A stretch of 64,000 nucleotides of DNA from Pyrinomonadaceae bacterium (lineage in GTDB: Bacteria > Acidobacteriota > Blastocatellia > Pyrinomonadales > Pyrinomonadaceae). Under the pieces are notes generated by a model. The model did no database searches and was not told the origin of the DNA. It saw only the letters and a program-made list of their open reading frames with translations. Shown here one piece after another: positions 2,178 through 29,039 of this stretch; positions within the stretch are counted from its first letter, which is position 1; each line of letters opens with the position of its first letter. The DNA is taken from contig JAJTWY010000011.1 in NCBI GenBank assembly GCA_021463165.1, positions 4,072-68,071 on the forward strand. Reading direction: 5' to 3'. Both the position numbers and the translations under genes were made by a program.

Positions 2178-3683
2178 ATGGCTAAATCAGAGATCAAGAA
2201 ATATAAGAACTATATCGGTGGCGAATGGGTGAGCTCGTCCTCGAATCAGTGGTTTGAGAACGTAAATCCTGCAGATACGACGGATATAATCGGGCGTTTT
2301 CCGGCGTCGAATGCCGAGGATGTGGACGCAGCGGTCGCGGCGGCAAAGGACGCGGCGACGCGCTGGCGAAGGACGCCTGCTCCAAAGCGGGCTGAACTGC
2401 TTTTCCGCTTAGCCCATATCCTCGAAAAGGGCAAAGATGCGTTCACGCAGCAGATGACGCGCGAAATGGGCAAGGTGCTCAAGGAGGCGGGCGGCGACGT
2501 TCAGGAGGCGATCGATTGTACGTACTACACCGCCGGCGAAGGGCGCCGTCTTCACGGTTTTACGACCCCGGCCGAGATGCCGAACAAATTTGCGATGTGC
2601 GTCCGCCAGCCGGTGGGGCTGTGCGGGCTTATCACGCCGTTCAACTTCCCGATGGCGATACCGTCATGGAAGTTGATCCCGGCCCTCGTCTGCGGCAATA
2701 CAGTGGTCCTAAAGTCCGGCGAGGACGTGCCGCTATCGTCGCTGAACTTGATCAAAGCATGTGAGGAGGCAGGAATCCCGAAAGGCGTTGTGAACCTTGT
2801 GAATGGATTTGCCGAGCCCGGGGCGGCTCTCGTCGAGCACCACGACGTACGTCTGATCTCTTTCACGGGCTCGACCACTACGGGCCGCATCATCGCCGAG
2901 CGATGTGCCCACGACAACAAGATCGTGAGCCTTGAAATGGGCGGAAAGAACGCCATCATCGTGATGGATGATGCGGATGTCGATAACGCCGTCGAAGGCT
3001 CGCTGTGGGGAGCCTTTGGCACGAGCGGCCAGCGATGCACGGCCTCGTCAAGGCTGGTAATTCATAAGAAGATCTACAAGAAATTCTGTGAAAAACTCGT
3101 CGAGAGGGCCAAGAAGCTCAAGGTCGGCAACGGCCTCGATCCGAAGACAGAAGTAGGGCCGGTGATCCACGAGGACGCGATGCAGAAGATACTCGGCTAT
3201 ATCCACATCGGTAAGGAGATCGACAAGGCAACCCTCGCGTGCGGCGGAAATCGGCTTACCCGCGGTGATCTCAAGAAGGGCTGGTTCGTCGAACCGACCG
3301 TTTTCACCGATGTAAAACGCGGCATGCGGATTGAGCAGGAAGAGATATTTGGGCCGGTGACGAGCGTCATTCCATTCTCGACGCTCGACGAGGCCATCGA
3401 CATCGTAAATGGTGTTAACTACGGCCTCTCAAGCGCGATCTACACGCAGGATGTGAACAACGCCTTTTACGCGATGCAGGAGCTCTACACCGGCATTTGC
3501 TATGTGAACTCGGCGACCATCGGAGCGGAAGTTCACCTGCCTTTCGGCGGAACAAAAGGAACCGGTAACGGCCACCGCGAGGCGGGAACTCAGGTTCTCG
3601 ACATTTTCAGCGAGTGGAAAGCTCTCTACGTTGACTACAGCGGCAAGCTGCAGAAGGCGCAGATCGATGCTGTTGAGATATAA
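2178..3683 (+). CDS. NAD(P)-dependent aldehyde dehydrogenase family protein
   Basis: 501 aa with ALDH hallmarks: [24 protein letters not shown], catalytic Cys in [10 protein letters not shown], and EEIFGPV. Confidence 0.9.
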
Positions 3684-5744: not shown

Positions 5745-7178
5745 ATGTATGAATTTGCGGTAACACCTGCGGTAACTCAGCTTAGGCGGCCGGGCGTGAT
5801 CATCACGGAGGTCGTGCCGGGCTCGGTAGGCTACTTACTGGAACTGCAGCCGAATGACCGCATCGTCAAGGTGAATGGCCGCTCGGTTCGTGACTATCTC
5901 GATTTTCGATTTCAAACTTCTGGCGAGACCGAGCTTACCTTCCTCGTAAAAAAAACGAACGGCGATACTGAAGAGATCGAATTTGACCGCGAGGAAGGCG
6001 AGGACTTCGGCCTTACGTTCGAGCAGATCGTACCCCGTCAATGTGCGAACGAATGTCTGTTCTGCTTCTGCAAAGGCAATCCTGAGGACGCGAGGCCCTC
6101 GCTGTTTGTTCGTGACGAGGATATTCGCCTTTCGTTCCTTTACGGAAATTACACCACGCTCTCGTCAATCACTGATGACGAGATGAATCGAATCATCGAA
6201 CAGCGGTTGTCGCCGCAGTATGTCTCGGTGCACACGACTGACCTGAGGACCCGGGCCTATCTTCTGGGTGTGGATGAAAAGCGAGCCGATATTTTCGATA
6301 AGTTCCAGCGGCTGCTCGACAACGACATCGAGATACACGCGCAGATCGTTCTCTGCCCGGAGATAAACGATGGTCCGGTCCTTGAAAAAACACTTCGCGA
6401 CCTCGCTGCGAAACACCCTAAAGTGATCTCTGCCGCTATTGTTCCAGTGGCTTTAACTCGATACAACACAGACGAGAGGTTGACCCGGGTCACGTCCGAA
6501 TTCTGCCGGCGCACTATCAAGCAGGTCGAAAAGCTCCAGAAGGAATTTCGCAAAACTCTCGGTGTGACGTTCGCGTTCATGGGTGACGAGATATATCTCA
6601 AGGGCGGCGTCGAGATACCTTCGAGGAAGCATTATGGCAACTATCCTCAGATCGAGGATGGCGTAGGAATGGTTCGGGCATTTGTGGCCAAGTTCGAACG
6701 ATCGCTGTCGGCTCCTGACCGGAACCGGGGGGCCTTGACAGGGCAAAAGCGAGCCTCTGATCGACGCACGCACATGGCTGCGACGGTCCCTCCGACATTT
6801 GCCAAAACCTATAGCAGCGTTACTGATGCCGTCACTGATCCCGCCTTTGGGACTATACTTACGGGCGAAATGTTCGCACCGATCCTTCGCGAACAGATCG
6901 ATAAGCTAAACGCCTTGAAAGGAACACGGCTCACCGTTCTTGCCGTTCCCAATATCTACTTTGGCGGCGACGTAGCGGTCGCCGGCCTCCTTTCAGGCCG
7001 GTGCCTGCTTGCGATGAAAGATAAGATCGTCGGAGATTTTGCCACTTTCCCCAAGGTCTGCATCAAATCGGACCAACCCATTCTCATCGACGGGATGTCA
7101 TTTGCGGATCTGGAGCGGAAGTTTCCTGTTCCAATTATTCCAGTGGATCTCGACAGCCTGATGCAGATCGTTCGATAG
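5745..7178 (+). CDS. DUF512-type radical-SAM-like protein with N-terminal PDZ domain
   Basis: 477 aa with a PDZ-like N-terminus (ITEVVPGSVGYLLELQPNDRIVKVNG). It has the Cys cluster CANECLFCFC, followed by the FLYGNYTTLS region typical of DUF512 proteins. Confidence 0.7.
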   Translation: MYEFAVTPAVTQLRRPGVIITEVVPGSVGYLLELQPNDRIVKVNGRSVRDYLDFRFQTSGETELTFLVKKTNGDTEEIEFDREEGEDFGLTFEQIVPRQCANECLFCFCKGNPEDARPSLFVRDEDIRLSFLYGNYTTLSSITDDEMNRIIEQRLSPQYVSVHTTDLRTRAYLLGVDEKRADIFDKFQRLLDNDIEIHAQIVLCPEINDGPVLEKTLRDLAAKHPKVISAAIVPVALTRYNTDERLTRVTSEFCRRTIKQVEKLQKEFRKTLGVTFAFMGDEIYLKGGVEIPSRKHYGNYPQIEDGVGMVRAFVAKFERSLSAPDRNRGALTGQKRASDRRTHMAATVPPTFAKTYSSVTDAVTDPAFGTILTGEMFAPILREQIDKLNALKGTRLTVLAVPNIYFGGDVAVAGLLSGRCLLAMKDKIVGDFATFPKVCIKSDQPILIDGMSFADLERKFPVPIIPVDLDSLMQIVR

Positions 7179-19831: not shown

Positions 19832-21001
19832 TTGTTTATGTCAGAACCAACCATGAAGAAAGTCAAACCGGATATCCGTGCGATCACGCGGCTTGTGCCC
19901 CCGAGCGGAAACCTCGTTCAAGGGCAGTCGGAACTGCCGATCGATCCGCAGCTTGCGGCCGAAGCATCGGCCATTATTGCTGCAAGCAAGAATCATTATG
20001 GCGGCAGCGAGGGGGACGCGAATCTGCGAAAGGCCGTTGCTGAAAAGATCGCAAAGTACAACAGCATTCAGGTCGATGCGGACGCAACACCCTATGAGCT
20101 GATAATAACGAACGGTGGAACCGGGGCATTGATCGGGATTGCACAAAAGTTTCTACGAGGCCGATCGGCCCTCGTTTTTGAGCCGTATTATCCGTATCAC
20201 AGGCGTATCCTTGAGGATTTTGGCGCTAAGACCGAGACCTTCGAACTTAACCCTTCCGATCTTGGCTTTGATAAGGAGGCGTTGCTCACACGATGCAAGC
20301 AACTTAAGGATCGTGTTGATTTTCCTCTCGCGATGATCATTGTTTGTACGCCGGCGAACCCGAGCGGCAAAGTGATGTCGCAGACGGAACTCGAAGCCAT
20401 TGCAGATGTCGCGAAGGAGTTGGACCTGCTCGTGGTTTCGGACGAGGTTTACGAACATTATGTGACGGGCGAGAACCCACATGTGCCGATCGCGTCGTTA
20501 CCAGACATGTGGGAGCGGACGATAACGGTCAACTCGTTCTCGAAATCGTGGAACATCTCTGGCTGGCGGCTCGGCTACGCGTACGGCAACGGCAAACTGA
20601 TCAACCAGATAAATGCAGCGGCGAACGTCATATATGTTTGTCCGGCAACCCCTTTGCAGGCAGCTCTGTCCAAAGTACTGATGGCGGATGACGGCTATTA
20701 TCCGCGCCTGAAGGAAACCTTTGACGCAAAGCGGAGGTACACATCGGGTGTCCTCAGCGATCTCGGCTTTAAGATCTATGATTCCGGTTCGGCGTTCTAC
20801 CTCTGGGCACGGATCCCCGAGCAATATAGCGACGCCATCGCCTTTAACGAAATGCTCATGAGCGAAGCCGGTGTCGGCATGACGCCCGGCTCGGCTTTTG
20901 CCGACAGCGACGACTGGGATGCTTTTGTTCGTATTTGCATCGCCCGGGAAGATACCATTCTCGAAGGTGCGATGGAACGACTTCGGTCGGTATTGGCTTA
21001 G
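19832..21001 (+). CDS. PLP-dependent aminotransferase, class I/II
   Basis: 389 aa. The PLP-lysine context is NSFSKSWNISGWRLGY, with the typical NP.GKV and D.VY blocks. Confidence 0.85.
   Translation: MFMSEPTMKKVKPDIRAITRLVPPSGNLVQGQSELPIDPQLAAEASAIIAASKNHYGGSEGDANLRKAVAEKIAKYNSIQVDADATPYELIITNGGTGALIGIAQKFLRGRSALVFEPYYPYHRRILEDFGAKTETFELNPSDLGFDKEALLTRCKQLKDRVDFPLAMIIVCTPANPSGKVMSQTELEAIADVAKELDLLVVSDEVYEHYVTGENPHVPIASLPDMWERTITVNSFSKSWNISGWRLGYAYGNGKLINQINAAANVIYVCPATPLQAALSKVLMADDGYYPRLKETFDAKRRYTSGVLSDLGFKIYDSGSAFYLWARIPEQYSDAIAFNEMLMSEAGVGMTPGSAFADSDDWDAFVRICIAREDTILEGAMERLRSVLA
20957..20977. repeat. 21-nt exact direct repeat, copy 1 (inside the aminotransferase 3' end)
   Basis: ATTCTCGAAGGTGCGATGGAA is identical to 21700-21720. 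Confidence 0.9.
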
Positions 21002-21019
21002 TTGATGTAAACTGTCGAT

Positions 21020-21247
21020 ATGAACAACATTAACGAGAGAATCACGGTCAATCCTAACCAATGCGGCGGGCGCCCGTGTATTCGCGGAATGCGCATTCGT
21101 GTGAGTGACGTACTTGATCTTTTTGGAGCAGGGCTTTCAAAAGAACAGATTTTAGACGAACTGCCTGATCTCGAAATGGAGGATCTGAATGCTGTTTTGA
21201 AATACGCAGCCCGAAAACTCGATCATCCGATCCTCGTCACTGCATGA
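21020..21247 (+). CDS. DUF433 domain protein (putative antitoxin)
   Basis: 75 aa. The DUF433 signature is NPNQCGGRPCIRGMRIRVSDVL...G.S.EQIL...P.LE.EDL. A 4-nt ATGA overlap joins it to the next gene. Confidence 0.8.
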   Translation: MNNINERITVNPNQCGGRPCIRGMRIRVSDVLDLFGAGLSKEQILDELPDLEMEDLNAVLKYAARKLDHPILVTA

Positions 21248-21585
21248 TAATTTGGATCGATGCCCAGCTTTCACCTGTGATTGCTCGTTGGGTAACCGCA
21301 GAATTTTCATGCGAAGCTTTCGCGGTGAGAGATATAGGTTTACGAGAGGCTGAAGATACGGAAATTTTTGATGCCGCTAAGAAAGCAAAAGCTATTGTCA
21401 TCACAAAGGATAGCGATTTTGTTGGACTACTCGATCGGTTTGGGCCACCACCTCAGATTATTTGGCTGACTTGCGGTAATACCTCCAACGCGGCCTTAAT
21501 GAACATCTTAGCTAGCAAGTTGGAAGCTGCGTTGGAATTGATTCGTGAAGGAGCGTCTTTAGTTGAAATAAACTCGCCTTATTAG
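21244..21585 (+). CDS. DUF5615 family PIN-like protein (putative toxin)
   Basis: 113 aa. IWIDAQLSP...VITKDSDF resembles DUF5615/Mut7-C-like PIN-fold partners of DUF433. Confidence 0.7.
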   Translation: MIIWIDAQLSPVIARWVTAEFSCEAFAVRDIGLREAEDTEIFDAAKKAKAIVITKDSDFVGLLDRFGPPPQIIWLTCGNTSNAALMNILASKLEAALELIREGASLVEINSPY

Positions 21586-21639
21586 ATTTGTAATGAATGC
21601 ATTTTTTGGGTTAAGCATTTCCAAAGTTTTATGATCAAG

Positions 21640-21744
21640 ATTTTCGAGAGCGACGTCTTTGAGGCAGACGAGAGCATCTGCATCGCGGTGACAAACACAA
21701 TTCTCGAAGGTGCGATGGAAAAACTGCAGCGTGTTCTTCGCTAA
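21640..21744 (+). pseudogene. orphan 3'-terminal fragment of an aminotransferase gene
   Basis: It translates in frame to IFESDVFEADESICIAVTNTILEGAMEKLQRVLR*. This aligns with the last 34 aa of the intact gene (FADSDDWDAFVRICIAREDTILEGAMERLRSVLA*), about 18/34 identical. It ends 24 nt before the S46 peptidase start. Confidence 0.75.
21700..21720. repeat. 21-nt exact direct repeat, copy 2
   Basis: ATTCTCGAAGGTGCGATGGAA is identical to 20957-20977. Confidence 0.9.
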
Positions 21745-21768
21745 GGCAATCTAAAAAACGGTGTAATT

Positions 21769-23826
21769 ATGAAACGATTCCTTGCTTTCCTGTTGTTGAT
21801 CAATTTGCTGGTATCTGCCGCCTTCGCTGACGAGGGCATGTGGACCTTTGACAATCCGCCGCTAAAACAGTGGAAAGAAAAATACGGTTTTGAGCCGTCG
21901 AAGGAATGGCTCGACAGGGTGCGGCTTGCGTCGGTCAAGTTTCCGGGCGCGTCCGGCGTATTTGTCTCGCCAAATGGTTTGATCGCGACCAATCACCACG
22001 TTGCATCAGGATTTATCGAGCGGCTTTCGAGCAAGGAACGCGACCTGCTAAAGAATGGGTTTTACGCGAAAACGCAGGCAGAGGAACTGAAGGTCCCCGA
22101 CGGAAATGTGCAGATTCTGCACTCATACGAAAACGTTACTGAACGTGTTCACAGTGCGGCGAGGGCCGGGTCCACCGACGCCGATGCGGCAGCAAAACGC
22201 ACGGCAGAGATCGCGGCGATCGAGAAAGACTGTCCCGCGGGCCTTCGCTGCGAGGTAGTTTCGCTCTATAGCGGTGGCGAATACTGGAAATACCGTTTCA
22301 AACGCTACACGGATGTGCGACTGGTGATGGCTCCTGAGGAGCAGGCGGCCTTCTTCGGCGGCGATTATGACAATTTTGTCTTTCCGCGGCACGATCTCGA
22401 TTTCACGTTCGTTCGCGTTTACGAAAACGACAAGCCGGCAAGCACGCCTAACTATCTTAAATGGTCGGCGACCGGTGCCCCGGAGGGTGAGTTCATCATC
22501 GCCTCGGGTTATCCCGGCTCGACGGCGCGGCTTTTGACCGTGGCACAGCTTGCCTATCAACGCGATATCGGCAACCCGCTGCAGGAAAAGGTCTGGAAAA
22601 CCCGTCGCAAAGCCCTTGAGGATTATTCGAAACTCGGTGCCGAGCAGCTTCGGCAGGCAAATCCCGGAATGAGATCGTTGGCTAATTCGCTCAAACGTCT
22701 CGAAGGTCAGCAGAACGGGCTTCTGAATCCGCGGAATTTCGCCAAGAAAGAAGCAGAGGAGAAGGACCTACGCGACAAACTTGCAGCGAAACCCGATCTG
22801 AACAAGCAATATTCACCTGCATGGGAAGCCATAGCCAAGGCGTACAGCGAACTGCCGTCAAAGGCAAACCAGATCGCGTTTTCGAGCCTTGCCTCGTCGC
22901 GTCTTGCGACAATTGCCCAGCAGATCGTCACTTACCATATCGAGACCGCGAAGGCCGACGGCCAGCGTTATCCTGAATTTCGCGAATCCCGGCTGGACGC
23001 CTTCAGGTCGTCATTGCTGTCGCCCGCACCTAGTTACAGCGAAATGGAACAGGCGGCGCTGACGGCGTGGATGGCGGAAGCCCGCAGCGTGCTCGGTGCG
23101 AACGATCCGTTCATCAAGGCCGCGCTGGGCGAGGCCGAGCCGGCGGAAGTTGTCGGACGAGCGATCCGCGAGACGAAACTGCTCGACCCGGCCGCGCGGA
23201 AGGCATTGCTCGACGGCGGTGCTGCCGCGGTTGCCGCGTCAACCGATCCATTGGTCACGCTTGCTCGTCGTGTCGAACCGGTGATCCGTGAACTCCGCTC
23301 GTGGAGCGAAAAGAATATTCTGGCGGTCGAAACGTCAAACGGGACGAAGATCGCTCAGGCCCGTTTTGCCGTTTACGGTAAAAATATGCCGCCAGACGCC
23401 AATTCTCACCTTCGCCTGTGTTACGGCGTCGTCAAAGGTTACGAGGAAGATACGACGCTGGTACCTTATCGCACAACCTTCTTTGGCCTGTACGATCGGG
23501 CGTTGAGCTTTGACGAAAAAGATCCGTTCCACTTGCCCGAAAGCGTCAAGAACGCCCGCAGCAAGATCGACCTTGCCACGCCGCTCAACTTCGTTTACAC
23601 CGCCGACACCATCGGCGGCAACTCCGGCTCACCCGTCGTCAACCGCCGCGGCGAAGTCGTCGGCCTAAACTTCGACTCGAACAACCAAAAACTCTCCAAC
23701 CGCTACTGGTACATCGAAGAAAACGAAGGCTCCCGCGCCGTCGGCGTCCATTCAGCGGGGATCCTCGAGGCGCTGCGGAAGATCTACGGTACAGAGGCAC
23801 TCGTTTCGGAGCTGCTTGGTTCATAG
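21769..23826 (+). CDS. S46 family dipeptidyl-peptidase (DPP7/DPP11-like)
   Basis: 685 aa with a signal peptide followed by DEGMWTFDNPP. It has TNHHV, and the catalytic Ser context GGNSGSPVVN lies near the C-terminus. Confidence 0.85.
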   Translation: MKRFLAFLLLINLLVSAAFADEGMWTFDNPPLKQWKEKYGFEPSKEWLDRVRLASVKFPGASGVFVSPNGLIATNHHVASGFIERLSSKERDLLKNGFYAKTQAEELKVPDGNVQILHSYENVTERVHSAARAGSTDADAAAKRTAEIAAIEKDCPAGLRCEVVSLYSGGEYWKYRFKRYTDVRLVMAPEEQAAFFGGDYDNFVFPRHDLDFTFVRVYENDKPASTPNYLKWSATGAPEGEFIIASGYPGSTARLLTVAQLAYQRDIGNPLQEKVWKTRRKALEDYSKLGAEQLRQANPGMRSLANSLKRLEGQQNGLLNPRNFAKKEAEEKDLRDKLAAKPDLNKQYSPAWEAIAKAYSELPSKANQIAFSSLASSRLATIAQQIVTYHIETAKADGQRYPEFRESRLDAFRSSLLSPAPSYSEMEQAALTAWMAEARSVLGANDPFIKAALGEAEPAEVVGRAIRETKLLDPAARKALLDGGAAAVAASTDPLVTLARRVEPVIRELRSWSEKNILAVETSNGTKIAQARFAVYGKNMPPDANSHLRLCYGVVKGYEEDTTLVPYRTTFFGLYDRALSFDEKDPFHLPESVKNARSKIDLATPLNFVYTADTIGGNSGSPVVNRRGEVVGLNFDSNNQKLSNRYWYIEENEGSRAVGVHSAGILEALRKIYGTEALVSELLGS

Positions 23827-26111: not shown

Positions 26112-26351
26112 ATGACCAACATCGTCGCAGAGATAACGGCCAAGTCAGCGTCGCTGCCGCCTGATCTGCAATATGAGGTTCTGGATTTTGTCGATTTTGT
26201 CGCCGGCAAACGACGCCGCGTCAAGACAACGGGAACTCCATTTCAGAGCGTTCGCGGAATACTGGAACGTGACTTGTCCAATCTGGAAATAGATCTGGCC
26301 CAGGTGCGCGATGAAATGTGGAAAAACTTTCCGGAAGAGGCGTCAGAATGA
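26112..26351 (+). CDS. DUF2281 family antitoxin-like protein
   Basis: 79 aa. LPPDLQYEVLDFVDFV is the DUF2281 signature. The stop overlaps the start of the PIN gene (ATGA). Confidence 0.75.
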   Translation: MTNIVAEITAKSASLPPDLQYEVLDFVDFVAGKRRRVKTTGTPFQSVRGILERDLSNLEIDLAQVRDEMWKNFPEEASE

Positions 26352-26755
26352 GTGCTGTGGTCACTGATACCCACGCCTTGCTTTGGTATCTCAGTAATTC
26401 AAGCAAGCTTTCGCGGGATGCTTCGAATGCTCTCGAAAATGCAGAGCAAAATGGATATCCAATTTATGTTCCGGCTATTAGCCTGATCGAACTGCGTTAT
26501 CTGGTCGAAAAGGGGCTTGATATTGAGGAACGCGATTTCCGGCTGGTGATCGAGAAATTGAATAGTCCGCAGAGCGCTTTGACCTTTGCTCCGTTAAGCC
26601 AGGGAACAGCCGAAGACCTCTATCAAATACCACGCTCCATCGTTCCCGATATGCCGGACCGCCTTATTGCAGCAACCGCCTACAACCTCGATCTGCCGCT
26701 GATCAGCATAGATATAAGCATCCGCAACCTGAAAAACGTCACGGTTATCTGGTAA
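26348..26755 (+). CDS. PIN domain toxin (VapC-like)
   Basis: 135 aa from the ATG at 26348. VVTDTHALLWYL and the later acidic residues (ISLIEL, PDRLIAATA) fit the PIN fold. The ORF track gives a longer upstream start at 26318. Confidence 0.75.
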   Translation: MSAVVTDTHALLWYLSNSSKLSRDASNALENAEQNGYPIYVPAISLIELRYLVEKGLDIEERDFRLVIEKLNSPQSALTFAPLSQGTAEDLYQIPRSIVPDMPDRLIAATAYNLDLPLISIDISIRNLKNVTVIW

Positions 26756-26835: not shown

Positions 26836-27000
26836 TCGTACCAATGCACATTCTCATCATAAAACTCGGCAGTATCGGGGACATTATTCACACGCTGCCG
26901 TTGCTGGCGGCGATTCGGGCGGCGTTGCCGGATGGCGAGATCTCGTGGGTTGTCGAGGAGCGGTCGGCGGAGGTATCTTACGGCGGGATGGGCTGATCGA
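26836..27000. repeat. direct repeat copy 1: duplicated 5' end of the GT9 gene
   Basis: Near-identical to 27910-28074. The first 57 nt from the ATG are identical. After that there are a few substitutions, a 2-nt insertion (GT) and increasing divergence. Confidence 0.85.
26844..26996 (+). pseudogene. truncated 5' fragment of the glycosyltransferase family 9 gene
   Basis: It translates to MHILIIKLGSIGDIIHTLPLLAAIRAALPDGEISWVVEERSAEVSYGGMG*. This matches the first ~43 aa of the intact GT9 at 27918, then frameshifts and stops. Confidence 0.8.
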
Positions 27001-27047
27001 CGAAACGGTGTGATCTAAGAACTAATTTAAGCGAGCTTCCGACAAGT

Positions 27048-27887
27048 ATGAAAGATGAACAGACAATAGCGGCTTTTCAGGAGTACCAGATACGGCGTTG
27101 GTACGATGAGGGCGAGGAAAAGTGGTATTTCTCAGTGATAGATGTTGTGGGAGCTTTGTCCGATAGCGCGAATGCGCGGGATTATTGGTTCAAGATGAAG
27201 ATTCGGGTCAAGGCTGATGACGGTTTTGAACTGTCGACGATTTGTCGACAGTTGAAAATGAAAGCCCCAGACGGGAAAATGCGCGAAACGGATTGTTCGG
27301 ACGCTCAGGGCTTGCTCCGGATCATCCAATCAATTCCTTCACCGAAGGCCGAGCCGTTCAAGCAATGGCTGGCAAAGGTTGGTTATGAAAGGCTTCAGGA
27401 GATGGGCGATCCGGCTCGTTCGCTTGATCGGGCTCGCGAAAACTGGCAGCGGCAAGGTCGCAGCGAAAAGTGGATCCAACAGCGGATGACCGGCCAGGAA
27501 ACCCGCAATAAGCTGACTGACTATTGGAAAGATCACGGTGTTATGGGTGATGAGTATGCGTTGCTGACGAATATCATCCATCAGGAATGGAGCGATGTTA
27601 GCGTAAAGCAGCACAAACAGATCAATGGACTGAAAACGCAGAACCTGCGCGACCACATGAGTGAGGCGGAACTACTATTTACTGCCCTGGCTGAACTGAC
27701 AACCCGGCAAATTGCAGAACGCGACCGGGCCGAAGGTTTTCCGGAAAATGTCGACTCCGGTCGTAAAGGCGGGCGCGTCGCGAAGCGGGCCCGCCTCGAT
27801 TTTGAATTGGAAACCGGTAACAAGGTCGTATCGAGTGATAACTTTCTGCCCACGACACCAGAGAAGAAAAGACTAAAAAAAGGATAA
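27048..27887 (+). CDS. Bro-N domain protein, DinD/antirepressor-like
   Basis: 279 aa. The Bro-N-like N-terminus is FQEYQIRRWYDEGEEKWYFSVIDVVGAL. The C-terminal region resembles the DNA-damage-inducible protein D architecture (from memory, no search run). Confidence 0.65.
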   Translation: MKDEQTIAAFQEYQIRRWYDEGEEKWYFSVIDVVGALSDSANARDYWFKMKIRVKADDGFELSTICRQLKMKAPDGKMRETDCSDAQGLLRIIQSIPSPKAEPFKQWLAKVGYERLQEMGDPARSLDRARENWQRQGRSEKWIQQRMTGQETRNKLTDYWKDHGVMGDEYALLTNIIHQEWSDVSVKQHKQINGLKTQNLRDHMSEAELLFTALAELTTRQIAERDRAEGFPENVDSGRKGGRVAKRARLDFELETGNKVVSSDNFLPTTPEKKRLKKG

Positions 27888-27909: not shown

Positions 27910-28074
27910 TCGTACCAATGCACATTCTCATCATAAAACTCGGCAGTATCGGGGACATTATTCACACGCTGCCGTCGCTTGCGGCGCTTCGGGCGGTGTT
28001 GCCGGATGGCGAGATCTCGTGGGTTGTCGAGGAGCGGTCGGCGGAGATCTTGCGGGGGAACGCGTTGATCGACA
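27910..28074. repeat. direct repeat copy 2: 5' end of the intact GT9 gene
   Basis: See 26836-27000. Confidence 0.85.
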
Positions 28075-29039
28075 ATTTGATCGAGGTCGATACCAAGAGC
28101 CTGCGGAGCGGGAAGGTCATTGAGGAGATATTGCTGGGAGTAACGAAGCAGATAAAAGAGCTACGGCAATACAGTTTCGATATTTCGATCGATTTTCAGG
28201 GGCTTTGGAAATCGGCGGCGATAGGGAAGCTGTCGGGAGCGAAGCGGCGGTTCGGGTTTGATAAAGACGGGCTTCGCGAGGCTTCGAGCAGGGTTTTGCT
28301 GACCGATCAGATCGCGGTTTCGTCCGGGATCCATGTGATCAGGAAGAATCTTGCACTGGCGGCCGGCGCATTGGGCGTCGAGATCCCAGATACGGATCTT
28401 GAGTTTCCGATCGCGACCTCGGCCGAGTATATCGCCGAGGCAGATGCGATAGTCGCTGCGACCGAATACACAGGCCCAGGCTCGGGCGGGGATGGAACAC
28501 GTATGTCGGAGGGGTCGCCCTTGCCGACGCGTGGACTTTCGGAGAAAGGAGGCTTCGCGGTACTCAATCCCGCCGGCGGGTGGGTGACGAAGCTCTGGCA
28601 TGCGGAAAAATATGGCGAACTCGCCGACCGCATCTGGGAGGAACACGCCATGCCGTCGCTCCTTGTTACGGGCCCTAACGAGTCCGATCTGGCCGAGCGT
28701 GCGGCGGCAAGGAGCCATTCCGGTAAGCTGACCCTGGCCGAACCGAGTTTGAAAGGCTTTTACGAGATCGCAAAACGGGCGGAAGTTTACGTCGGCGGCG
28801 ACACCGGCCCGACCCATATAGCGGTTGCGGCCGGCGCCCCGATAGTCGGAATTTTCGGGCCAACAGAATGGTGGCGAAACGGCAGCCCGCGGTCGGAAGA
28901 TATCTGTGTGGAACGGGACGACATTGATTGCCGTGTGGATTGCCACCGCCGGTCGTGCTCAAATTGGATCTGCATGGACATCAGCGTGGAAACAGTTTTG
29001 GAGGCCGTTGGCAGAAGGCTAGCGCGGACTCACCGGTGA
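27918..29039 (+). CDS. glycosyltransferase family 9 (heptosyltransferase-like)
   Basis: 373 aa. The N-terminus MHILIIKLGSIGDIIHTLP, plus W..E.....L and the C-terminal GGDTGPTHIA block, are typical of GT9. Confidence 0.85.
   Translation: MHILIIKLGSIGDIIHTLPSLAALRAVLPDGEISWVVEERSAEILRGNALIDNLIEVDTKSLRSGKVIEEILLGVTKQIKELRQYSFDISIDFQGLWKSAAIGKLSGAKRRFGFDKDGLREASSRVLLTDQIAVSSGIHVIRKNLALAAGALGVEIPDTDLEFPIATSAEYIAEADAIVAATEYTGPGSGGDGTRMSEGSPLPTRGLSEKGGFAVLNPAGGWVTKLWHAEKYGELADRIWEEHAMPSLLVTGPNESDLAERAAARSHSGKLTLAEPSLKGFYEIAKRAEVYVGGDTGPTHIAVAAGAPIVGIFGPTEWWRNGSPRSEDICVERDDIDCRVDCHRRSCSNWICMDISVETVLEAVGRRLARTHR

Follow-up and report, generated by a model that had tools for sequence, protein, structure and literature searches.

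A toxin-antitoxin cassette between two copies of an aminotransferase 3' end in a Pyrinomonadaceae genome

The locus

The window examined here is a stretch of 64,000 nucleotides (nt) of contig JAJTWY010000011.1, from a bacterium of the Pyrinomonadaceae (Acidobacteriota) that is widespread in activated sludge. In it, an intact class I/II aminotransferase gene (AT) is followed by a two-gene toxin-antitoxin (TA) cassette, with a DUF433 antitoxin and a DUF5615 toxin. Beyond the cassette and 59 nt of filler lies an orphan copy of the 3' end of that same aminotransferase gene, and then the gene for an S46 dipeptidyl-peptidase (S46). The repeated unit measures 743 bp. The insert proper is 643 nt long (21002-21644), and the TA pair is its sole gene content. 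All features are listed in Table 1.

Table 1 Features of the aminotransferase-S46 region of the window. The last four rows describe flanking repeats at DUF433/DUF5615 cassettes in other genomes (MAG, metagenome-assembled genome; ORF, open reading frame; aa, amino acids).
Feature	Coordinates	Strand	Remarks
AT, intact class I/II aminotransferase	19832-21001	+	Pfam Aminotran_1_2 E = 8e-56, residues 31-383
Upstream copy of the duplicated AT 3' end	20902-21001	+	Working gene end
21-mer, copy 1	20957-20977	+	Exact match; codons ILEGAME
Working tail, present last 8 codons of AT	20978-21001	+	RLRSVLA*; poor fit to gene body
AT-DUF433 spacer, 18 nt	21002-21019	+	-10-like TGTAAACT at 21006-21013, 6 nt 5' of ATG
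DUF433 (COG2442) antitoxin, VapB10-like	21020-21247	+	Pfam DUF433 E = 5e-24
DUF5615 PIN-like toxin	21244-21585	+	Pfam DUF5615 E = 2e-25; PIN_10 E = 5e-5
A+T-rich filler, toxin stop to orphan, 59 nt	21586-21644	+
37-aa ORF spanning the orphan	21631-21744	+	No Pfam match; this species only
Orphan, inner (cassette-side) half, 55 nt	21645-21699	+	Pseudogene-like
21-mer, copy 2	21700-21720	+	Exact match
Native tail and native 24-nt spacer 5' of S46	21721-21768	+	KLQRVLR*; empty-site layout of relatives
S46 dipeptidyl-peptidase, downstream neighbour	21769-23826	+	Pfam Peptidase_S46 E = 9e-192
L114, Jaaginema MAG	2423-2690 and 3366-3633		268 nt, 98.5% identical, covers purL start
L099, Calothrix			93-nt repeat
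L129, Blastocatellia			76 nt, 3' end of glycosyltransferase gene, orphan after TA
L105, Pyrinomonadaceae	2687-3406 (cassette region)		51 nt, 3' end of FAD-oxidase (GlcD-like) gene, orphan after TA

The duplicated gene end

The AT protein ends in ...ICIAREDTILEGAMERLRSVLA, and the 37-aa ORF that spans the orphan ends in ...ICIAVTNTILEGAMEKLQRVLR, with a gap of 24 nt between its stop and the start of S46. The two 3'-end copies (20902-21001 and 21645-21744) align without gaps, in register with both stop codons. They share an 81-nt match at 70% identity, and 64 of the last 100 nt are the same. This identity is very unevenly spread: 33/55 upstream of the 21-mer, 21/21 in this core, and 10/24 in the tail.

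The 21-mer, ATTCTCGAAGGTGCGATGGAA, occurs exactly twice in the window, while 0 such repeats are expected by chance (100 shuffles). An earlier sequence-only reading of the window had described this exact repeat and the layout around it, and all its positions hold. It had also counted some 18 of 34 shared residues, and a count from the translations agrees (18 of about 34).

The AT 3' ends of about 75 relatives were turned into a nucleotide profile, which matches the orphan at 21645-21743 with E = 2e-14. The match covers profile positions 301-399 of 400, and the onset of homology at 21645 is sharp. By this match the orphan is a true AT 3' end. The 37-aa ORF is called as a gene in public assemblies, but it is probably a gene fragment and not a real gene; its 5' two-thirds are decayed AT sequence.

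Gene callers elsewhere place the start of AT at 19853, for a protein of 382 aa. The 389-aa reading matched no exact protein record. There is also a 16-nt direct repeat of 88% identity, TTAGTTGATGTAAACT (20998-21013) and TTAGTTGAAATAAACT (21559-21574), at the AT stop and TA promoter on one side and the toxin 3' end on the other; it may be due to chance.

The organism is of a metagenome type, and related Pyrinomonadaceae co-occur in the same samples. This makes it conceivable that the 3' ends of two strains were joined into a chimera during assembly or binning. The data make such an artefact barely credible, however. In 8 DNA runs, which belong to several studies, the contigs agree at every position of 20527-22400, and 7 further independent public Logan contigs have the same structure. 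Two metatranscriptome contigs also span AT, the TA pair, the orphan and S46 (20487-22669 and 20649-22111), although these come without depth resolution and DNA carry-over is possible. A metatranscriptome contig from run X27 (20957-21450) begins exactly at base 1 of the 21-mer. This is probably a coincidence of coverage, as contig ends are not transcript ends.

A mosaic pattern in both copies

The first 76 nt of the upstream copy, up to and including the 21-mer, are 82-85% identical to the nearest relatives (L001 and L004; labels of this kind denote loci of other genomes). The rest of the gene matches them comparably well. The working tail does not follow suit. Against the six nearest relatives it matches at 8-12 of 24 nt, where 14.7-15.5 would be expected at that body identity, while the orphan tail matches the same six at 13-19 of 24 nt. 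For L001, the difference between body and working tail is significant (Fisher p = 4e-5). The working tail nevertheless keeps the family pattern x-L-x-x-V-L-x-stop, and its L, V, L and stop codons have changed synonymously only. Its appearance is that of a genuine gene end from a different lineage, not of random damage. Error-prone fill-in was considered as a source of this tail, and rejected because those codon changes are all synonymous.

In the orphan, the pattern is reversed. In its inner half, 10 of 18 codons have been replaced, and the invariant W, R, R, E and D are among those lost (they include the Trp, and the Arg of the VRICIA motif); the core plus tail have 0 of 14 replaced (Fisher p = 0.001). 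The orphan tail shares 20/24 nt with L014 and 18/24 with L003, and all differences are synonymous. Compared with L014, 34/55 nt are identical in the inner half and 40/45 in core and tail (p = 0.003). Over these inner 55 nt, the orphan shares 26-35 positions with any one relative and the working copy 37-47.

These patterns indicate that the inner segments (the working tail and the inner arm of the orphan) have a different history from the outer ones (the AT body, and the core, tail and spacer of the orphan). In both copies, the switch between these histories falls at the 21-mer.

The decayed inner arm has two copies of CGAGAGC (21645-21651 and 21669-21675), 24 nt apart, both of which came about by changes from the AT consensus. 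Many of its differences are clusters of 2-3 nt and not single substitutions.

The filler (21586-21644) has no significant match to S46 5' ends, or to the sequence downstream of 93 other toxins. The idea that it is a remnant of an S46 5' end was rejected, as the scores are within the shuffled range. RNA folding of 21583-21771 gives no signal (z = +0.36), and Rfam has no match there at E <= 1. A scan of the orphan region (21586-21768) found no sigma-70-like promoter or terminator, with hits at background level.

Relatives at the junction

The comparison is based on 80 orthologous AT loci from the Pyrinomonadaceae, with 76-88% aa identity to the AT of the window. Many of these relatives have an empty site, where AT is followed by S46 after 5-32 nt. 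The sequence-only reading had predicted an empty site with an aminotransferase ending in EKLQRVLR, and such sites exist. In L003, L014 and L071, AT ends in ...EGAMEKLQRVLR (EKLQRVLR), followed by a 25-26-nt spacer and then S46. L037 has the same layout with a tail ...EKLQRVLS, and L001 has a 24-nt spacer and a tail ...EKLIRVLR. In these five loci there is one AT 3' end only, with S46 24-26 nt further on. The spacer of L003 is AACAATCTATTTCAACGGTGTAATT, and that of the window before S46 is GGCAATCTAAAAAACGGTGTAATT; these are identical at 19 of 24 positions. The tail of the window's orphan, its spacer and the start of S46 agree with this empty-site layout. The comparators are other species, with AT at most 88-89% aa identical, and not strains.

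A search of 5.8 billion proteins gives the same picture. Its closest matches are 88-89% identical for AT and 69% for the toxin. The 16 nearest AT proteins (84-89% identity) all end in ...EGAM(E/D)KL(Q/I)xVLx. In 9 of these 16, the tail is exactly ...EKLQRVLR, and ERLRSVLA is found in none. This bears out the earlier reading, which held that the gene end was replaced and the native one displaced.

The DUF433/DUF5615 pair itself is found at the AT-S46 junction in at least 17 relatives (L004, L010, L013, L015, L030, L035, L036, L041, L056, L059, L060, L070, L081, L103, L116, L168 and L169). The spacer from AT stop to antitoxin is usually 29 nt there (TTGATTCAAATCGGGTGTAAAATAGGC..). It is homologous to the 18-nt spacer of the window, which is this spacer minus 11 nt. 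None of these TA-bearing relatives has an orphan AT end or a flanking repeat. Among 92 loci, the orphan is confined to the species of the window, and it is not part of a longer gene; either finding to the contrary would have spoken against the earlier reading.

The antitoxin is 82-89% aa identical to relatives at the same locus. The nearest homologues of the toxin (69% identical, in L168 and L169) are also found at this AT-side locus, in genomes where AT is just 77-79% identical. Of the relatives that bear the TA pair, L004 has the closest AT (86%), and its toxin is 57% identical. With the relatives of the toxin in genomes with a distant AT, and the toxin of L004 so different, an exchange of cassettes between lineages is independently indicated.

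Other loci among L001-L080 have other occupants between AT and S46. These include secreted proteins of 163-228 aa, a pair of about 115 and 135 aa, a 357-aa gene on the minus strand, and larger inserts. The junction is a variable islet across the Pyrinomonadaceae.

In L005 (AT 86% identical; 6050-6323), AT leaves the family at the codon that starts the 21-mer, as ...AREDTV|WDDAKNEFRGFEITR*. The contig ends 170 nt after this point. There may be a second, independent breakpoint here, or a contig-end artefact.

The 21-mer

The 21-mer is one base away from the family consensus, gTTCTCGAAGGTGCGATGGAA, and is exact in none of the 80 relatives. Pairs of relatives agree exactly at this position in 0.1% of cases, and in 17% of pairs the last 100 nt hold an in-register stretch of 21 nt or more without a mismatch. 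The duplication is far beyond chance. The exactness of the 21-mer is by itself only moderately unusual.

Third-codon variability in relatives amounts to 1.34 bits in the 21-mer, 1.60 in the tail and 1.37 gene-wide. This gives no sign of a DNA element embedded in the 21-mer. No independent insertion bearing the 21-mer core was found.

Similar scars elsewhere

Direct repeats were surveyed at 82 distinct DUF433/DUF5615 loci by comparing the 250 nt upstream of the antitoxin with the 350 nt downstream of the toxin. Controls were 457 positions shifted by 1.2-2.4 kb. Significant flanking direct repeats of host DNA were found at 10/82 loci and at 2/457 control positions (Fisher p = 2e-7), and both scoring controls are in one Hymenobacter locus. 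This means that about 1 in 8 of the sampled cassettes has flanking repeats, with cases in Acidobacteriota, Cyanobacteria and Bacteroidota. The Hymenobacter (Bacteroidota) repeats contain hairpins and may be dispersed repeats.

Four of the loci are given in Table 1. In the Jaaginema MAG, the upstream repeat copy is a truncated purL fragment, and the duplication looks like a recent event. The cassette with the FAD-oxidase orphan (L105) has a counterpart in a different Pyrinomonadaceae species (L126; 801-853 and 2753-3409), with the same TA pair and orphan at 84.5% nt identity. L126 also has 1.9 kb of extra cargo between the intact gene end and the TA pair: a helix-turn-helix protein, a 153-aa ORF and a PIN-like protein. 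To judge by these two sequences, the orphan either persisted across speciation or moved with the cassette.

The window has a second scar, about 6 kb from the first, and this one is younger. Positions 26836-27004 are repeated at 27910-28076, first over 137 nt at 97% and then over some 30 nt at about 73%, with a 2-nt indel. The repeat is the 5' end of a family-9 glycosyltransferase gene (27918-29039). It flanks a single Bro-N-domain gene (27048-27887) and leaves a 50-aa orphan ORF (26844-26996). In L175, a Bro-N gene (86% aa identical) is directly 5' of the glycosyltransferase and there is no orphan. L172 has neither Bro-N nor orphan, and has Mpl directly 5' of the glycosyltransferase.

The two scars of the window have much in common. 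In both cases the cargo sits cleanly in relatives, and here it comes with an orphan of a neighbour gene's end on the far side. In both, the cassette-side edge of the orphan is the diverged part. The repeats at the other cassettes and at the second scar are unrelated in sequence and 28-268 nt long.

Just 5' of the second scar, at 26112-26755, there is a further TA-like pair with overlapping ORFs: a DUF2281 antitoxin-like protein of 79 aa and a PIN-domain protein of 145 aa. With this pair beside the scar, the gap between Mpl and the glycosyltransferase is therefore also a small islet of selfish modules.

Discussion

How the gene end came to be duplicated can be explained in several ways. It is put here at about one chance in two that the TA operon was inserted or exchanged at the AT-S46 junction by homology-anchored recombination, with involvement of DNA from a TA-carrying related lineage. 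The conserved AT 3' end would then have been the stretch of homology at which a TA-bearing and a TA-less lineage recombined. The TA-side DNA would have given AT its last 8 codons, along with the TA promoter spacer, the two genes, the 59-nt filler and perhaps an arm that was already decayed. The resident last 100 nt of AT would have been displaced downstream, where the outer 45 nt and the original spacer still precede S46. As the tail and spacer of the orphan match the empty sites of relatives, the orphan is the native gene end, moved downstream.

The data show the duplication itself, the native identity of the orphan tail, the mosaic pattern, the lack of recombinase genes and the recurrence of such repeats at other loci. 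Which way the DNA moved, where exactly the joints are and which enzymes took part are what we infer. The joints would lie at or beside the 21-nt identity, which is the longest stretch there over which the two diverged copies agree. A single crossover of a circularised or 'ends-in' fragment could have produced this. So could a homologous joint on one side combined with an illegitimate one on the other, possibly with a later recombination patch. No dedicated recombinase or attachment (att) site would be involved. No integrase or transposase is found among the ORFs of more than 110 aa in the 8-36 kb part of the window, where genes are of the housekeeping or small TA-like kind. The sequence-only reading had likewise seen no integrase, and there is none in the 743-bp unit or within about 13 kb.

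Several observations weigh against such a recombination. A donor has not turned up: no relative has an AT ending in ERLRSVLA, including upstream of the same TA pair, where the earlier reading had suggested looking for it. The filler and the decayed arm are absent from the sampled TA-bearing relatives. A one-step event from functional sources predicts a uniformly young orphan, but the inner half is decayed. An extra assumption is therefore needed: a donor with an old orphan, a second recombination patch, or mutagenic formation of the joint. Neither the 59-nt filler nor the decay of the inner arm is explained by any one-step model. With relatives at 74-80% nt identity, a sliding-window comparison of AT and S46 places no breakpoints. 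The exactness of the 21-mer, so near the consensus, may be plain conservation and need not mark a crossover.

An empty site would have the junction GAAGATACC-[21-mer]-AAACTGCAG, and a 743-bp circle or tandem would have ACAAACACA-[21-mer]-CGACTTCGG. No empty-site or circular form was seen in the contigs of the 8 DNA runs (these are contigs, not raw reads), which, as far as contigs can tell, counts against the proposal. In JGI metagenome contigs, empty-site and circle junctions had no match either, but a degenerate pattern that covers occupied forms also found none, so the species is absent there and this negative carries no information. A joint in run X17 that skips 1011 was rejected as an excision; it is a divergent relative's contig that matches two conserved patches.

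The same structure might also have arisen in place, from a duplication of some 100-124 nt (AT 3' end plus spacer) in the lineage of the window, followed by uneven decay. This would have happened when the TA pair, or DNA on the S46 side, joined here, with copies that were at first identical. The hypervariable last 8 codons of the working copy would have been remodelled; they would now overlap the TA promoter after the 11-nt spacer deletion. The inner half of the orphan would have drifted, with the 69 nt before S46 kept for their expression signals. The 21-mer would then be a mere overlap of two constrained parts. The architecture does have the classical form of an 'insertion with long target duplication', and the stretch of the orphan that is conserved coincides exactly with the 69 nt 5' of the S46 ATG. 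The replaced tail positions are mostly hypervariable ones in the family, and a -10-like box 6 nt from the ATG would place more upstream elements of the promoter or operator inside the AT tail. The middle of the second scar is likewise pristine and its edges are diverged, which resembles the outcome of patchy conversion or constraint. It is the amount and distribution of change that do not fit. The working tail has 14 of 24 nt changed, far more than the 20% by which the gene as such differs from its nearest relative, and yet its L, V, L and stop codons took synonymous changes only. The 45 nt of orphan core and tail have zero non-synonymous changes, against 10/18 codons in the adjacent 55 nt, and a promoter does not constrain every base. 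Third-codon variability of relatives is ordinary in this part, and there is no sigma-70-like site in 21586-21768. With the working tail too different and the orphan too uneven, plain duplication plus drift does not fit, and an origin in place, though the main rival, is rated as unlikely.

The sequence-only reading had favoured an island-like att duplication. An integrase-bearing island would have integrated at the 21-mer as att core, brought a replacement gene end, and later shrunk to its addictive TA pair. The exact 21-mer does sit at both boundaries where divergence changes, a gene end was replaced, and the inner arm is decayed, as it would be for a non-coding attP arm. AT of L005 also leaves the family at the very codon where the 21-mer begins, but L005 has no core after this breakpoint. 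The unit and its surroundings of about 13 kb lack an integrase, and the TA pair with its upstream spacer is a long-term resident of the junction in at least 17 relatives, without repeats. The supposed core is consensus coding sequence that is exact in 0/80 relatives. Unrelated repeats, 28-268 nt long, flank the other cassettes and the cargo of the second scar, and this argues for a process based on homology or duplication and not for a fixed att site. Site-specific integration is thus quite improbable. The earlier interpretation is partly supported, in that its polarity was right, while its att and island part is not borne out.

Insertions of a comparable kind have been described for restriction-modification (R-M) modules under the name 'insertion with long target duplication'. 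These modules come without a mobility gene. Their repeats range from tens to hundreds of bp, correspond to a sequence present once at the empty site, and frequently run across a start or stop codon (PMC2853133, PMC3874152). The work in question is by Nobusato et al. 2000 (as cited in PMC2853133) and by Furuta, Abe & Kobayashi 2010 (PMC2853133). The latter looks for an insert of less than 20 kb in which the module is present but a mobility gene is not; here it is 643 nt, with no such gene in 8-36 kb. Direct repeats of more than 30 bp should flank it, and here there are 100 nt in register, at 64%. The repeats should be single-copy at a relative's empty site, as is the case here with other species as comparators. 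The published duplications are mostly above 90% identical (PMC2853133). The repeats here are not near-identical, being a mosaic at 64%, which would mean that the event is old and patched, or that two lineages were involved. As with R-M modules, the target gene stays intact and the repeat spans its stop codon; the cargo is R-M there, and a type II TA pair here. By this analogy, the locus is best read as the TA counterpart of the R-M insertions. The literature search found no paper that applies 'long target duplication' to type II TA pairs.

In Escherichia coli, e14 and phage 21 integrate at the 3' end of icd, provide a substitute end and leave a pseudo-icd fragment. Elements of this type encode an integrase and use a defined att core. 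There too, the element brings the gene end, and the native 3' fragment becomes a downstream orphan and direct repeat. They differ in having an integrase, whereas the 743-bp unit here has no recombinase, and its cargo is found in relatives without repeats.

Homology-facilitated illegitimate recombination is known from laboratory transformation. De Vries & Wackernagel 2002 and Prudhomme et al. 2002 reportedly describe it, or Campbell-type insertion-duplication, for bacteria with natural transformation. The foreign DNA is anchored by a single stretch homologous to a core gene and the other joint is illegitimate, which can put donor and recipient gene ends side by side. By itself, this does not account for the decayed inner arm seen here.

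A broader idea is more speculative, and on balance unlikely. DUF433/DUF5615 cassettes, and other small selfish cargo of this genome, might be self-sufficient mobile units without a recombinase of their own. Such units would carry a core-gene fragment as a portable homology arm, and would enter naive relatives by host homologous recombination (a circle's single crossover, or 'ends-in'). If true, the working gene would be left with a hybrid end and the native end would be displaced, cells that undergo the reverse crossover would be selected against by post-segregational killing, and the unexplained 'insertion with long target duplication' class would have a mechanism.

The movement of chromosomal TA pairs is poorly understood: they are called mobile, mostly without a transposase or integrase. 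The present locus offers a readable scar, with a displaced native end, a substitute end and putative joints at a short identity. TA mobility is thereby connected with the unexplained long-target-duplication insertions of R-M genes. Its recurrence across phyla and within the window makes this kind of insertion testable, for example by RecA dependence or by circular or ends-in intermediates.

The toxin-antitoxin pair

The antitoxin and toxin ORFs are on the same strand, antitoxin first, with a 4-nt overlap (ATGA). The DUF433 protein matches PDB 2GA1 (E = 6e-4). In an alignment of 12 homologues of the DUF5615 toxin, D6, D38, D56 and D58 are invariant, and the protein of the window keeps all four. 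By homology, the pair is predicted to function as a type II TA system of the VapBC10 type (PIN-COG2442/DUF433). The closest toxin homologues are from Pyrinomonadaceae and cyanobacteria.

The PIN-COG2442 family is abundant in cyanobacteria, and vapBC10 of Synechocystis PCC 6803 has been shown to be a working TA system (PMC3834315). There too, a single operon encodes a COG2442/DUF433 antitoxin and, after it, a PIN-like toxin. Toxicity and neutralisation were shown there, and the pair of the window is related to it at domain level. No paper was found in the literature that treats DUF433 and DUF5615 together.

In a clade of relatives (L004, L013, L041, L056, L059, L060, L070 and L116), the toxin is extended at its C-terminus (..SSVPVLEP*), and the TGA of its gene overlaps the ATG of S46 (ATGA). 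This overlap suggests that the housekeeping peptidase is translationally coupled to the toxin gene there.

The motif TGTAAAAT-N6-7-ATG recurs 5' of DUF433 in acidobacterial cassettes at other loci. A -10 box like TGTAAAAT is found 6-8 nt 5' of the antitoxin ATG in the window (21006-21019), in L004, L082, L096, L103 and L149, and in others. The box in the spacer is probably a leaderless TA promoter, and -10 boxes so close to the ATG suggest leaderless antitoxin mRNAs. A similar GGTGTAAT precedes S46 at empty sites.

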